A DNA stretch of 64,000 nucleotides from Escherichia coli (GTDB lineage Bacteria; Pseudomonadota; Gammaproteobacteria; Enterobacterales; Enterobacteriaceae): assembly GCF_024700885.2 (NCBI RefSeq), contig NZ_CP117016.1. The stretch is one strand, 5' to 3'. The first letter of the stretch is position 1. Each line of letters starts with the position of its first letter. Below are positions 28,159 to 46,274 of the stretch, in pieces. A program made the position numbers and the translations under genes. Below the pieces are notes generated by a model. It was not told where the DNA came from, searched no databases, and worked only from the letters and a program-made list of their open reading frames with translations.

Positions 28159-28620
28159 CTTAAAAACCTATCCCGTCTAACACAAAGTGCATACATTACC
28201 ACGACAAAACGGGGGATTCGCGGCCTTCTGAAAGATTGTTGCAATCTTCTGCTGACAAAGCGTGCAACGTACTGGTGAAGAAAGTGCGTTATCTCAAAGA
28301 TGTGCGCAAGATCACAAAAATGATGAACGGGAAGCTAATTTATTCCTGGCTTAAATGGCCATGCGGTGAGTTTTTTTCTCTTAATTATAAGTTAACGAAG
28401 AGAATATATTTCATAACTTTTATTTATAATAAAGGTTGATAATTAAAAGCCTATATTTTGTGTGGGTAATTATTTAAATAAGAGAAACGTTTCGCTGGTA
28501 ATCAAACAAAAAATATTTGCGCAAAGTATTTCCTTTGTCATAAAAATAATACTTCCAGACACTATGAAGTTGTGAAACATAATGTTAACTTCTCCATACT
28601 TTGGATAAGGAAATACAGAC

Positions 28621-28881
28621 ATGAAAAATCTCATTGCTGAGTTGTTATTTAAGCTTGCCCAAAAAGAAGAAGAGTCGAAAGAACTGTGCGCGCAGGTAGA
28701 AGCTTTGGAGATTATCGTCACTGCAATGCTTCGCAATATGGCGCAAAATGACCAACAAAGGTTGATTGATCAGGTAGAGGGGGCGCTGTACGAGGTAAAG
28801 CCCGATGCCAGCATTCCTGACGACGATACGGAGCTGCTGCGCAATTATGTAAAGAAGTTATTGAAGCATCCTCGTCAGTAA
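28621..28881 (+). CDS. iraP: anti-adaptor protein stabilising RpoS under phosphate starvation
   Basis: 86-aa coiled-coil [33 protein letters not shown] upstream of phoA. Confidence 0.85.
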
Positions 28882-28901
28882 AAAGTTAATCTTTTCAACA
28901 G

Positions 28902-28936
28902 CTGTCATAAAGCTGTCACGGCCGAGACTTATAGTC
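28902..28936 (+). promoter_or_regulatory. Pho box and -10 element of the phoA promoter
   Basis: ctgtcataaagctgtcac (two 7-bp CTGTCAT-type direct repeats) followed by tatagt. Confidence 0.8.
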
Positions 28937-28980
28937 GCTTTGTTTTTATTTTTAATGTATTTGTACATGGAGAAAATAAA

Positions 28981-30396
28981 GTGAAACAAAGCACTATTGC
29001 ACTGGCACTCTTACCGTTACTGTTTTCCCCTGTGACAAAAGCCCGGACACCAGAAATGCCTGTTCTGGAAAACCGGGCTGCTCAGGGCGATATTACTGCA
29101 CCCGGCGGTGCTCGCCGCTTAACGGGTGATCAGACCGCTGCTCTGCGTGATTCTCTTAGCGATAAACCTGCCAAAAATATTATTTTGCTGATTGGCGATG
29201 GGATGGGGGACTCGGAAATTACTGCTGCACGCAATTATGCCGAAGGTGCGGGCGGCTTTTTTAAAGGTATCGATGCCTTACCGCTTACCGGACAATACAC
29301 ACACTATGCGCTGAATAAAAAAACCGGCAAACCGGACTACGTCACCGACTCGGCTGCATCAGCAACCGCCTGGTCAACTGGTGTCAAAACCTATAACGGT
29401 GCGCTGGGCGTCGATATTCACGAAAAAGATCACCCAACGATTCTGGAAATGGCAAAAGCCGCAGGTCTGGCGACCGGTAACGTTTCTACCGCAGAGTTGC
29501 AGGATGCCACGCCCGCCGCGCTGGTGGCGCATGTGACCTCGCGCAAATGCTACGGGCCGAGCGCGACCAGTGAAAAATGTCCGGGTAACGCTCTGGAAAA
29601 AGGCGGAAAAGGATCGATTACCGAACAGCTGCTTAACGCTCGTGCCGATGTTACGCTTGGCGGCGGCGCAAAAACCTTTGCTGAAACGGCAACCGCCGGT
29701 GAATGGCAGGGAAAAACGCTGCGTGAACAGGCACAGGCGCGTGGTTATCAGTTGGTGAGCGATGCTGCCTCACTGAATGCGGTGACGGAAGCGAACCAGC
29801 AAAAACCCCTGCTAGGACTGTTTGCTGACGGCAATATGCCAGTGCGCTGGCAAGGACCGAAAGCAACGTACCACGGCAATATCGACAAGCCCGCAGTTAC
29901 CTGTACGCCTAATCCGCAACGTAATGACAGCGTACCGACCCTGGCGCAGATGACCGACAAAGCCATTGAATTGTTGAGTAAAAATGAGAAAGGCTTTTTC
30001 CTGCAAGTTGAAGGTGCGTCAATCGATAAACAGGATCACGCTGCGAATCCTTGTGGGCAAATTGGCGAGACGGTCGATCTCGATGAAGCCGTACAACGTG
30101 CGCTGGAATTCGCTAAAAAGGAGGGTAACACGCTGGTCATAGTCACCGCTGATCACGCCCACGCCAGCCAGATTGTCGCGCCGGACACCAAAGCGCCGGG
30201 CCTCACCCAGGCGCTAAATACCAAAGATGGCGCAGTGATGGTGATGAGTTACGGGAACTCCGAAGAGGATTCACAAGAACATACCGGCAGTCAGTTGCGT
30301 ATTGCGGCGTATGGCCCACATGCTGCCAATGTCGTTGGACTGACCGACCAGACCGATCTCTTCTACACCATGAAAGCCGCCCTGGGGCTGAAATAA
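28981..30396 (+). CDS. phoA: alkaline phosphatase
   Basis: 471-aa ORF with signal peptide and the DSAASATAW active-site serine region; the start is probably GTG. Confidence 0.95.
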
Positions 30397-30397
30397 A

Positions 30398-30442
30398 ACC
30401 GCGCCCGGCGGTGAATTTTCGCTGTCGGGTGGTTTTTTTGCT
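30398..30442 (+). terminator. putative rho-independent terminator after phoA
   Basis: GC-rich imperfect dyad followed by a ttttttt run. Confidence 0.5.
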
Positions 30443-30514
30443 GTTAGCAACCAGACTTAATGGCAGATCACGGGCGCAAACGCTCATGGTTAAAACATGA
30501 AGAGGGATGGTGCT

Positions 30515-30835
30515 ATGAAAATAACATTACTGGTTACCTTGCTTTTCGGACTGGTTTTTTTAACCACCGTCGGCGCTGCCGAGAGAACCTTAACCCCGCA
30601 ACAACAGCGTATGACCTCCTGTAATCAGCAGGCGACGGCGCAGGCGTTGAAAGGGGATGCTCGTAAGACCTACATGAGTGATTGCCTGAAGAACAGCAAG
30701 TCTGCGCCTGGTGAAAAAAGTTTGACGCCACAGCAGCAAAAGATGCGCGAATGTAATAATCAAGCAACGCAACAATCTCTGAAAGGTGATGATCGTAATA
30801 AGTTTATGAGCGCCTGCCTCAAAAAAGCCGTCTGA
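30515..30835 (+). CDS. psiF: phosphate starvation-inducible protein
   Basis: ORF 30497..30835 trimmed to MKITLLVTLL (106 aa); internal duplicated motif LTPQQQ(R/K)M..CN.QAT.Q.LKGD.R. Confidence 0.85.
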   Translation: MKITLLVTLLFGLVFLTTVGAAERTLTPQQQRMTSCNQQATAQALKGDARKTYMSDCLKNSKSAPGEKSLTPQQQKMRECNNQATQQSLKGDDRNKFMSACLKKAV

Positions 30836-30936
30836 TATCTGATAGTGCTAACGGGTGAGCTACGAAAATGGCTCACCCGAAATTTCATACTTCTGCCTTT
30901 AGCCCCGTCTCTATAATTTGGGAAAATTGTTTCTGA

Positions 30937-32052
30937 ATGTTCCCAAAAATAATGAATGATGAAAACTTTTTCAAAAAAGCGGCGGCGCATGGGGAGGAAC
31001 CTCCTTTAACTCCTCAAAACGAACATCAGCGGTCCGGGCTGCGCTTCGCCCGTCGCGTCAGACTACCCCGCGCGGTTGGCCTGGCTGGCATGTTCTTACC
31101 GATTGCTTCAACGCTGGTTTCGCACCCGCCGCCGGGCTGGTGGTGGCTGGTGTTGGTCGGCTGGGCGTTCGTCTGGCCGCATTTAGCCTGGCAGATAGCG
31201 AGCAGGGCCGTCGATCCGCTTAGCCGGGAAATTTACAACTTAAAAACCGATGCAGTATTAGCGGGAATGTGGGTAGGCGTAATGGGCGTAAACGTGCTGC
31301 CTTCCACCGCGATGTTGATGATTATGTGTCTGAATTTGATGGGGGCAGGCGGCCCCCGTCTGTTTGTCGCGGGTCTGGTGTTGATGGTGGTTTCCTGCCT
31401 TGTCACCCTCGAACTGACGGGCATCACCGTGTCGTTCAATAGTGCGCCGCTGGAATGGTGGCTCTCCCTTCCCATTATCGTCATTTATCCTCTGCTGTTT
31501 GGCTGGGTCAGCTACCAGACGGCGACTAAACTGGCGGAACATAAACGCAGGTTGCAGGTCATGAGTACCCGCGACGGTATGACGGGCGTGTATAACCGAC
31601 GTCATTGGGAAACTATGTTACGCAATGAATTTGATAACTGTCGGCGGCATAACCGCGATGCGACATTACTGATTATCGATATCGACCATTTCAAGAGCAT
31701 CAACGATACTTGGGGCCATGATGTGGGCGATGAGGCGATTGTGGCGCTTACCCGACAGTTACAAATAACCCTGCGCGGTAGCGATGTGATTGGTCGGTTT
31801 GGCGGCGATGAGTTTGCGGTAATCATGTCCGGTACGCCAGCTGAGAGCGCCATTACCGCCATGTTACGGGTGCATGAAGGGCTAAACACGTTACGTTTGC
31901 CGAATACGCCACAGGTAACATTACGGATTAGTGTGGGGGTTGCGCCGCTGAATCCACAAATGAGTCACTATCGCGAGTGGTTGAAATCGGCAGATTTGGC
32001 GCTCTACAAAGCAAAGAAAGCCGGACGTAACCGCACCGAAGTGGCGGCCTGA
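30937..32052 (+). CDS. dgcC: diguanylate cyclase with N-terminal MASE2-type membrane domain
   Basis: 371-aa ORF with GGDEF active-site motif (RFGGDEF); the adrA/yaiC orthologue position. Confidence 0.88.
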   Translation: MFPKIMNDENFFKKAAAHGEEPPLTPQNEHQRSGLRFARRVRLPRAVGLAGMFLPIASTLVSHPPPGWWWLVLVGWAFVWPHLAWQIASRAVDPLSREIYNLKTDAVLAGMWVGVMGVNVLPSTAMLMIMCLNLMGAGGPRLFVAGLVLMVVSCLVTLELTGITVSFNSAPLEWWLSLPIIVIYPLLFGWVSYQTATKLAEHKRRLQVMSTRDGMTGVYNRRHWETMLRNEFDNCRRHNRDATLLIIDIDHFKSINDTWGHDVGDEAIVALTRQLQITLRGSDVIGRFGGDEFAVIMSGTPAESAITAMLRVHEGLNTLRLPNTPQVTLRISVGVAPLNPQMSHYREWLKSADLALYKAKKAGRNRTEVAA

Positions 32053-44149: not shown

Positions 44150-44185
44150 CTTTTCATAAATCTGTCATAAATCTGACGCATAATG
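44150..44185 (+). promoter_or_regulatory. Pho box of the phoBR promoter
   Basis: ttttcataaatctgtcataaatctgacgcat: tandem CTGTCATA-type repeats upstream of phoB. Confidence 0.8.
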
Positions 44186-44231: not shown

Positions 44232-44921
44232 ATGGCGAGACGTATTCTGGTCGTAGAAGATGAAGCACCAATTCGCGAAATGGTCTGCTTCGTGCTCGAA
44301 CAAAATGGCTTTCAGCCGGTCGAAGCGGAAGATTATGACAGTGCTGTGAATCAACTGAATGAACCCTGGCCGGATTTAATTCTCCTTGACTGGATGTTAC
44401 CTGGCGGCTCCGGTATCCAGTTCATCAAACACCTCAAGCGCGAGTCGATGACCCGGGATATTCCAGTGGTGATGTTGACCGCCAGAGGGGAAGAAGAAGA
44501 TCGCGTGCGCGGCCTTGAAACCGGCGCGGATGACTATATCACCAAGCCGTTTTCGCCGAAGGAGCTGGTGGCGCGAATCAAAGCGGTAATGCGCCGTATT
44601 TCGCCAATGGCGGTGGAAGAGGTGATCGAGATGCAGGGGCTAAGCCTCGACCCGACATCTCACCGGGTGATGGCGGGCGAAGAGCCACTGGAGATGGGGC
44701 CGACAGAATTTAAACTGCTGCACTTTTTTATGACGCATCCTGAGCGCGTGTACAGCCGCGAGCAGCTGTTAAACCACGTCTGGGGAACTAACGTGTATGT
44801 GGAAGACCGCACGGTCGATGTCCACATTCGTCGCCTGCGTAAAGCACTGGAGCCCGGCGGGCATGACCGCATGGTGCAGACTGTGCGCGGTACAGGATAT
44901 CGTTTTTCAACCCGCTTTTAA
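44232..44921 (+). CDS. phoB: phosphate regulon response regulator (OmpR family)
   Basis: 229-aa [20 protein letters not shown]; receiver plus winged-helix domains. Confidence 0.95.
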
Positions 44922-44978: not shown

Positions 44979-46274
44979 GTGCTGGAACGGCTGTCGTGGA
45001 AAAGGCTGGTGCTGGAGCTGCTACTTTGCTGCCTCCCGGCTTTCATCCTGGGTGCATTTTTTGGTTACCTGCCCTGGTTTTTGCTGGCATCGGTAACGGG
45101 ACTGCTTATCTGGCATTTCTGGAATTTGTTGCGCCTTTCATGGTGGCTGTGGGTGGATCGTAGTATGACCCCGCCACCGGGACGTGGTAGCTGGGAACCG
45201 CTGCTATACGGATTACACCAGATGCAGTTGCGAAATAAAAAACGCCGCCGCGAACTGGGCAATCTGATTAAACGCTTTCGTAGCGGCGCGGAGTCGCTGC
45301 CCGACGCGGTGGTGCTGACCACGGAAGAGGGCGGTATTTTCTGGTGCAACGGTCTGGCGCAACAGATTCTTGGCTTGCGCTGGCCGGAAGATAACGGGCA
45401 GAACATCCTTAACTTGCTGCGTTACCCGGAGTTTACGCAATATCTGAAAACGCGTGATTTTTCTCGCCCGCTTAATCTGGTGCTCAACACCGGGCGGCAT
45501 CTGGAAATTCGCGTCATGCCTTATACCCACAAACAGTTGCTGATGGTGGCGCGTGATGTCACGCAAATGCATCAACTGGAAGGGGCGCGGCGTAACTTTT
45601 TTGCCAACGTGAGCCATGAGTTACGTACGCCATTGACCGTGTTACAGGGTTACCTGGAGATGATGGATGAGCAACCGCTGGAAGGCGCGGTACGTGAAAA
45701 AGCGTTGCACACCATGCGCGAGCAGACCCAGCGGATGGAAGGGCTGGTGAAGCAGTTGCTGACGCTGTCGAAAATAGAAGCCGCACCGACGCATTTGCTC
45801 AATGAAAAGGTTGATGTGCCAATGATGCTGCGCGTTGTTGAGCGCGAGGCTCAGACTCTGAGTCAGAAAAAACAGACATTTACCTTTGAGATAGATAACG
45901 GCCTCAAGGTGTCTGGCAACGAAGATCAGCTACGCAGTGCGATTTCGAACCTGGTCTATAACGCCGTAAATCATACGCCGGAAGGCACGCATATCACCGT
46001 ACGCTGGCAGCGAGTGCCGCACGGTGCCGAATTTAGCGTTGAAGATAACGGACCGGGCATTGCACCGGAGCATATTCCGCGCCTGACCGAGCGTTTTTAT
46101 CGCGTTGATAAAGCGCGTTCCCGGCAAACCGGCGGTAGCGGATTAGGGTTAGCGATCGTGAAACATGCGGTGAATCATCACGAAAGTCGCCTGAATATTG
46201 AGAGTACAGTAGGAAAAGGAACACGTTTCAGTTTTGTTATCCCGGAACGTTTAATTGCCAAAAACAGCGATTAA
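44979..46274 (+). CDS. phoR: phosphate regulon sensor histidine kinase
   Basis: 431-aa ORF; H-box [10 protein letters not shown]-box [10 protein letters not shown]; follows phoB. Confidence 0.93.

Follow-up and report, generated by a model that had tools for sequence, protein, structure and literature searches.

The phoA and phoBR promoters of Escherichia coli are the best-studied phosphate-starvation promoters of bacteria, and in E. coli K-12 the genes that they serve, phoA-psiF (b0383-b0384) and phoBR, belong to the core Pho regulon. The textbook geometry of such promoters places 10 bp between the Pho box and the -10 hexamer, and both the literature and the databases give phoA-psiF as one operon. 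Here we analysed a stretch of 64,000 nucleotides (the window), all of it E. coli chromosome, which carries identical genes in identical order. An earlier note on this DNA had recognised in it two Pho-regulon units with their Pho boxes, phoA-psiF and phoBR. The observation is confirmed and its interpretation correct, and all of this was known before: both are known PhoB-activated operons with canonical Pho boxes. It restates these promoters and has no discovery value, and the locus serves as a positive control for the recognition of real regulatory sites from sequence. The view of phoA-psiF as a known unit held as regards its PhoB dependence, but it was incomplete, as the one-operon annotation hides a conserved terminator, a probable separate sigma-S-type promoter that would give psiF a second, PhoB-independent route of expression, and a predicted small RNA (sRNA) site. 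These additions come from published data sets combined with an analysis of conservation. The overall explanation that we propose, to which we give a probability of about 0.85, is that PhoB drives phoA-psiF and phoBR, that a leaky terminator separates phoA from psiF, that psiF also has a promoter of its own and is damped by the sRNA CpxQ, and that its product is an exported protein of two helical hairpins.

A scan of both strands of the window with the Pho-box consensus CTGTCATAWAWCTGTCAY, allowing up to 3 mismatches, returned exactly 3 matches against a chance expectation of 0.12, and none of 100 shuffled sequences reached 3. All three fall at the two known promoters, one at phoA and two, which overlap, at phoB (Table 1). 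The overlapping pair (44151-44179, plus strand) amounts to three 7-bp repeats, TTTTCAT, CTGTCAT and CTGACGC, at 11-bp spacing. At both promoters we found the repeat structure of a Pho box, CTGTCAT-like 7-bp repeats with a 4-bp A/T-rich spacer, together with the 10-bp distance to the -10 hexamer. Among 80 related loci, all from Enterobacteriaceae (the single PsiF query matched this family only), 63 have phoA upstream of psiF and 62 could be tested upstream; a box with at most 4 mismatches precedes the phoA start in 57 of these 62, mostly by 74-82 nt.

Published work on K-12 bears out PhoB control of both units. Chromatin immunoprecipitation sequencing (ChIP-seq) gave PhoB peaks at the phoA and sbcD/phoB sites, and RNA sequencing (RNA-seq) gave log2 PhoB dependences of 7.6 for phoA, 5.4 for psiF and 6.8 for phoR (PMC10294691). 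The wild-type and ΔphoB values in that study were 318602/301623 versus 1490/1607 for phoA, 36625/28610 versus 851/659 for psiF (43-fold) and 37697/46411 versus 374/403 for phoR (PMC10294691). The phoB site of the window, TTTCATAAATCTGTCATA, is the same as the K-12 ChIP-seq site, and the K-12 phoA site is 1 base off that of the window. At low phosphate, PhoR would phosphorylate PhoB, whose dimers would bind the Pho boxes in place of a -35 element. They would thereby bring in sigma-70 RNA polymerase at phoA (box at 28902-28919) and at phoB (boxes at 44151-44179); at the latter, this activation would amount to autoregulation. A further site lies inside phoB, at 44334-44351 on the minus strand. 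It reads TATGACAGTGCTGTGAAT, the reverse complement of ATTCACAGCACTGTCATA, which is given as an intragenic PhoB ChIP-seq site in K-12 phoB, of a class that the authors of that study regard as mostly transcriptionally inert (PMC10294691); our 3-mismatch scan missed it.

Between phoA and psiF the sequence can form a hairpin with a 13-pair stem, 8 of the pairs being G-C, followed by a U-tract, as in an intrinsic terminator. Its folding energy is -25.1 kcal/mol (z-score -4.2), and it was also picked up by the terminator scan; the TGG between stem and T-tract is atypical for a terminator. In an alignment of 62 distinct Enterobacteriaceae sequences (Escherichia, Citrobacter, Enterobacter, Klebsiella, Kosakonia and other genera), 97.8% of the cells are paired and 7 of 9 pairs show compensatory changes. 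None of 500 shuffles was as good, and slid controls were 31-59% paired. Judged by its sequence and covariation, we take the segment 30402-30439 to be a conserved intrinsic terminator within the presumed single operon.

In K-12 psiF depends 43-fold on PhoB despite this hairpin, and therefore part of the transcription from the phoA promoter must read through it. The psiF/phoA signal ratio would put this read-through at ~10% if the values are length-normalised and at ~46% if they are raw counts per gene. Transcripts from the phoA promoter would meet the hairpin and T-tract, a fraction of them would continue into psiF, and psiF would be PhoB-dependent in E. coli because of this fraction. Another hairpin (29040-29079; -21.9 kcal/mol, z-score -2.6) lies early in phoA, inside the first 100 nt of its coding sequence, just before position ~29084, which is the counterpart of a Term-seq 3' end internal to the open reading frame at K-12 401850. 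It may be a site of premature termination or processing in phoA.

The region past the T-tract holds a further addition to the described system. The element CCAGACTTA follows a CCAnnCTTA pattern in which the C, C and A and the C, T, T and A are invariant in the 62 sequences and the two middle bases vary, so that the hexamer reads CAGACT, CATCCT, CATGCT, CATTCT or CAAACT. It stands at a fixed distance past the T-tract and at a fixed spacing from the GGTGGTTTTTT block that precedes it. A -10 hexamer would show such a pattern, its A(-11) and T(-7) being fixed, with C(-13) before it and TA after it. Promoters of sigma-S typically have a -10 region with C(-13) and a TA(A)-like extension. Moreover, the element and the GGTGGTTTTTT block are kept where there is no phoA, in Salmonella, in Pantoea (CCAGAATTA) and in several other Enterobacteriaceae in which iraP abuts psiF.

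Expression data from relatives point the same way. In Klebsiella pneumoniae the psiF start site was mapped at 368553 (PMC3415461); the sequence upstream of it is ...CACCGGCTGGTTTTTTTTCTATCTGCGTCCAGACTTACAACG, which puts CAGACT at -12 to -7, directly past the hairpin and T-tract. In Salmonella the psiF reads fall from 361/475/327 in the wild type to 3/4/3 in ΔrpoS (log2 -6.59, ~100-fold), and the upstream gene iraP is low and shows no change (PMC4014581). For psiF of E. coli O157:H7 EDL933 the published RpoS-dependence ratio is 73, in a paper whose main text makes no mention of phoA (PMC2907692). In Salmonella the stretch from iraP to psiF contains no phoA and no Pho box. A search for a separate Pho box immediately before psiF, covering E. 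coli and the phoA-less genomes, gave none within 5 mismatches apart from surviving remnants of the phoA promoter. These results make it very probable that a second promoter, used by sigma-S, serves psiF alone. It would then also be transcribed alone, from the conserved -10 element CAGACT, which in E. coli would be used by sigma-S, and the upstream part of this promoter would share sequence with the phoA terminator, namely the T-tract and the 3' arm of the hairpin.

Within the iraP-psiF interval phoA has been lost several times, independently in several lineages. Internal deletions of phoA are found in the Enterobacter cloacae complex (L064, L067, L069, L073), in Leclercia (L081) and in Citrobacter sedlakii (L026); in some of these loci psiF is still preceded by the Pho box, in others by a degenerate remnant of it with 3-6 mismatches, and by the initial codons of phoA. 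In Salmonella (L019, L028) the phoA promoter is gone and the 5' arm of the hairpin is deleted, with everything from the loop onward kept. PhoB control of psiF is therefore lineage-dependent, and the psiF-proximal element is conserved throughout. Distant homologues of PsiF come mainly from short contigs of metagenomes, which offered neither a Pho box nor an informative gene context.

In phosphate-starved cells sigma-S is stabilised by IraP. We tentatively suggest, at somewhat less than even odds, that psiF was ancestrally a sigma-S gene beside iraP, that PhoB control is a secondary overlay found only where phoA intervenes and the terminator leaks, and that the PsiF repeat, with an MxxC motif in each helix, could be a so far unrecognised periplasmic ligand-binding or redox module. 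If this is true, iraP-psiF would form a PhoB-independent phosphate-starvation route, from IraP through sigma-S to psiF, which would still be working in Salmonella and Pantoea, whose loci lack phoA.

A further layer of control probably acts on translation. The Shine-Dalgarno region of psiF is nearly invariant across genera (consensus AAGGATGGTGCWATG; the window reads GAGGGATGGTGCTATG), and the duplex predicted over it and the start codon with CpxQ has an energy of -28.7 kcal/mol, equalled by 3 of 1000 shuffles and 11 of 2974 genomic windows. The calculation used only the 5' part of CpxQ, which is single-stranded, because the full sRNA paired through its terminator stem; that result was discarded. 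The predicted duplex agrees with a 2025 preprint that reports CpxQ-psiF chimeras and CpxQ-dependent repression of the PsiF protein. CpxQ, an envelope-stress sRNA, would thus pair over the Shine-Dalgarno sequence and start codon and damp psiF translation. Downstream, the hairpin that follows psiF coincides with a Term-seq primary 3' end (K-12 403649), and a 3' end on the opposite (minus) strand, at K-12 403612, falls in the same hairpin region, so that this terminator appears to be bidirectional. The phoA-psiF unit would end here, at 30852-30879, and adrA is therefore a separate unit.

The earlier note had also remarked that PsiF contains an internal duplication of a Cys-containing motif, and had suggested a small periplasmic protein of two repeats. 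The duplication is real, as a local BLOSUM62 alignment of the two halves scores 131 against 23.5 +/- 4.7 for shuffles, with 0 of 5000 reaching 131. The motif needs two corrections: its position 7 is R in the first copy and K in the second, and the repeat extends over 34 residues with two Cys per copy, not one. The two-repeat reading is upheld by the Pfam family PF07769 (PsiF repeat), in which the repeat was already catalogued and which matches twice (E 8.7e-34, 115.5 bits, cut-off 21), by NCBIfam NF008560 (233.7 bits, cut-off 165) and by a signal peptide ahead of the 34-residue repeats and their two conserved Cys. PsiF would be exported through this Sec-type signal peptide, probably cleaved after VGA.

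The family is widespread and comprises 1205 clusters at 50% identity (E <=0.001), with 1 to 5 repeats per protein; two is the commonest number, in 100 of the 150 best cluster representatives. In 69 two-repeat members C36, A40, G47, R50, C57, C80, A84, G91, R94, C101 and L102 are invariant, and the Met that precedes each Cys by three positions (Met33, Met54, Met77, Met98) is conserved to 90% or more. Structure prediction, which the earlier note had suggested for the repeats, gave an AlphaFold model on the family alignment with four helices (28-42, 47-60, 72-86, 91-104) arranged as two helical hairpins; the predicted local distance difference test (pLDDT) is 88-96 within the repeats, and the orientation of one hairpin to the other is uncertain (predicted template-modelling score, pTM, 0.39). 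A sequence search of the PDB with PsiF gave nothing below E 0.4, and the two modelled hairpins have no relative among solved structures. PsiF would then consist of two 34-residue helix-turn-helix hairpins with one invariant Cys per helix, and the Cys pair of each hairpin is most likely joined by a disulfide. We found no paper that establishes a biochemical function for PsiF; apart from expression lists, it turned up solely in two screens of overproduced proteins, which looked for resistance to H2O2 and for the waking of persisters. Three metagenomic members (P0206, P0232, P0233) carry two or three PsiF repeats followed by a ~60-residue C-terminal domain that contains Cys (…CGTDTVVWVNTDSHIYHF…GAYMCERDA…). 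Two records look contaminated or mislabelled: an assembly of Chryseobacterium sp. 18061 (L031) with an enterobacterial iraP-psiF locus, and a PsiF labelled Pseudomonas aeruginosa (P0047), the protein being 88% identical to that of E. coli in each.

How far could these observations be explained otherwise? That the Pho-box matches are a chance likeness to an A/T-rich consensus, without regulatory role in this strain, could be argued from the single base by which the phoA box differs from that of K-12. However, the variant base is nearer the consensus and is common to other Escherichia, the three matches exceed expectation and all sit at the two known promoters with exact spacing to their -10 hexamers, the box is kept in most related loci, and the K-12 ChIP-seq and RNA-seq data back both sites (PMC10294691); we give this explanation practically no weight. 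A more serious proposal is that phoA-psiF is a simple bicistronic operon with one PhoB-dependent promoter, in which the hairpin would serve mRNA stability or processing and CCAnnCTTA would be a 5' untranslated region or processing element. It agrees with the annotation, with the PhoB dependence of psiF RNA (PMC10294691) and with the lack of a sigma-70 consensus promoter upstream of psiF. It does not account for the retention and expression of psiF in genomes without phoA and Pho box, for an RpoS dependence in Salmonella that the upstream gene does not share (PMC4014581), for a Klebsiella start mapped 7 nt past the hexamer (PMC3415461), or for a hexamer whose second base (A) and sixth base (T) are fixed and whose middle is free, as in a -10 element. 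Furthermore, in ΔphoB psiF has ~2 times the reads of phoA per nucleotide, if the counts are per gene (PMC10294691). We therefore consider the simple operon unlikely and favour the leaky terminator with a separate psiF promoter, against which several points nevertheless count. Term-seq gives no 3' end at the phoA-psiF hairpin, in cells that were not phosphate-limited; the units of the RNA-seq table are ambiguous, so that read-through is only bracketed, and the own promoter of psiF adds to the counts; a generic sigma-70 scan gives no promoter upstream of psiF, and the -35 region of the candidate is poor; and the E. coli start near 30464 is placed by orthology with Klebsiella. The disulfide state of the PsiF cysteines, finally, is one that we infer.

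This last point opens the way to another view of PsiF, in which the four MxxC motifs would make two Met2Cys2 soft-metal sites and the protein would be a periplasmic metal buffer or chaperone, or an oxidant sink. Cys36, Cys57, Cys80 and Cys101 are invariant and their paired Met strongly conserved in the 69 sequences, the three-residue spacing would place each Met on the same helical face as its Cys in the model, overproduced PsiF was recovered in the H2O2-resistance screen, and PhoA is a zinc and magnesium enzyme. However, DsbA normally oxidises the paired cysteines of proteins that E. coli exports, the Met residues are equally explicable as hydrophobic core, psiF remains in genomes without phoA, and PsiF matches no metal-binding family or fold. 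A metal site thus seems improbable to us, and we retain the disulfide-closed hairpins as the preferred picture of the protein.

Table 1. Features of the phoA-psiF and phoBR units in the window.
Feature	Position	Strand	Basis and remarks
phoA Pho box	28902-28919	+	CTGTCATAAAGCTGTCAC; 1 mismatch; two 7-bp direct repeats, 11 bp apart
phoA -10 hexamer TATAGT	28930-28935	+	read from sequence; 10 bp past Pho box end
phoA, alkaline phosphatase, 471 aa	28981-30396	+	GTG start; RefSeq annotation; PF00245 and NF007810
Intrinsic-terminator-like hairpin, then TGG, then T7 tract	30402-30431; T7 tract 30433-30439	+	fold, terminator scan, covariation
Candidate psiF -10 region	30451-30459	+	CCAGACTTA; hexamer CAGACT 30452-30457; predicted start ~30464
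psiF Shine-Dalgarno and start-codon region, predicted CpxQ pairing site	30498-30518	+	
psiF, 106 aa	30515-30835	+	PF07769 twice, NF008560
PsiF predicted signal peptide	30515-30577	+	N-terminus MKITLLVTLLFGLVFLTTVGA; basic residue, hydrophobic core, V-G-A at -3 to -1
PsiF repeat 1	30590-30691	+	residues 26-59, LTPQQQRMTSCNQQATAQALKGDARKTYMSDCLK
PsiF repeat 2	30722-30823	+	residues 70-103, LTPQQQKMRECNNQATQQSLKGDDRNKFMSACLK
psiF hairpin terminator	30852-30879	+	-20.1 kcal/mol, z-score -4.85
phoBR Pho box, first	44151-44168	+	TTTTCATAAATCTGTCAT; 2 mismatches
phoBR Pho box, second, overlapping	44162-44179	+	CTGTCATAAATCTGACGC; 2 mismatches
phoB -10 hexamer CATAAT	44179-44184	+	10 bp past end of first box
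phoB, response regulator	44232-44921	+	NF007546; Pfam Response_reg and Trans_reg_C
phoR, sensor histidine kinase	44979-46274	+	NF008235; Pfam PhoR, PAS, HisKA, HATPase_c

The products of phoA, psiF, phoB and phoR (4 of 4) score above the curated NCBIfam equivalog cut-offs and carry the expected Pfam domains. The phoA product matches PF00245 over its full length (E 9.4e-138, 460 bits) and NF007810 with 895 bits (cut-off 540), and its translation begins with a signal peptide and contains the Asp-Ser-Ala motif of the active site. PhoB (540 bits against NF007546, cut-off 471) is an OmpR-family regulator and stands beside a kinase with the PhoR domain (889.9 bits against NF008235, cut-off 390). Over 28600-31000 the annotated order is iraP, phoA, psiF, adrA; several E. 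coli chromosomes match this interval with 100% identity, and of 5426 complete E. coli genomes 5425 contain it. Farther upstream, between ddlA and iraP, RefSeq gives a 'hypothetical protein' of 67 aa (28236-28439, plus strand) that is without annotation in K-12 and has no match in Pfam or NCBIfam; it may not be a real gene. An Rfam scan of the entire window at gathering thresholds gave zero matches.

We finally compare the locus with the systems closest to it. Set against enterobacterial sigma-S promoters, the element upstream of psiF has the C at -13, A at -11, C at -8, T at -7 and TA at -6/-5, its psiF orthologues are strongly RpoS-dependent and the Klebsiella start is at the expected distance; it differs by a C instead of T at -12 and by its -35 region. 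PsiF shows no difference from the PF07769/NF008560 family, with two full-length 34-residue repeats and their invariant Cys, Ala, Gly, Arg and Cys, and helical hairpins stapled by disulfides, for example the small Tim proteins and the alpha-hairpinins, are also among the closest known systems. From iraP to adrA the window is 97.4% identical to K-12 along 2060 bp. K-12 shares the exact Pho box of phoB and the geometry of the promoters, and the phoA-psiF hairpin and the elements downstream of it exist there too. The phoA Pho box reads AAGCTGTCAC here and AAGTTGTCAC in K-12, a single base apart: at 28913 (position 12 of the box) the window has C and K-12 has T. This C, which moves the second half-site toward the consensus, is common to other Escherichia loci (L006, L008, L010, L011), and by this comparison of sequences the K-12 T may be the derived base. 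Two changes in the hairpin convert a G-C and an A-U pair to G-U, and PsiF ends in AV in the window where the K-12 protein ends in AA. These differences, in the box, the hairpin pairs and the PsiF end, are ordinary strain polymorphisms.

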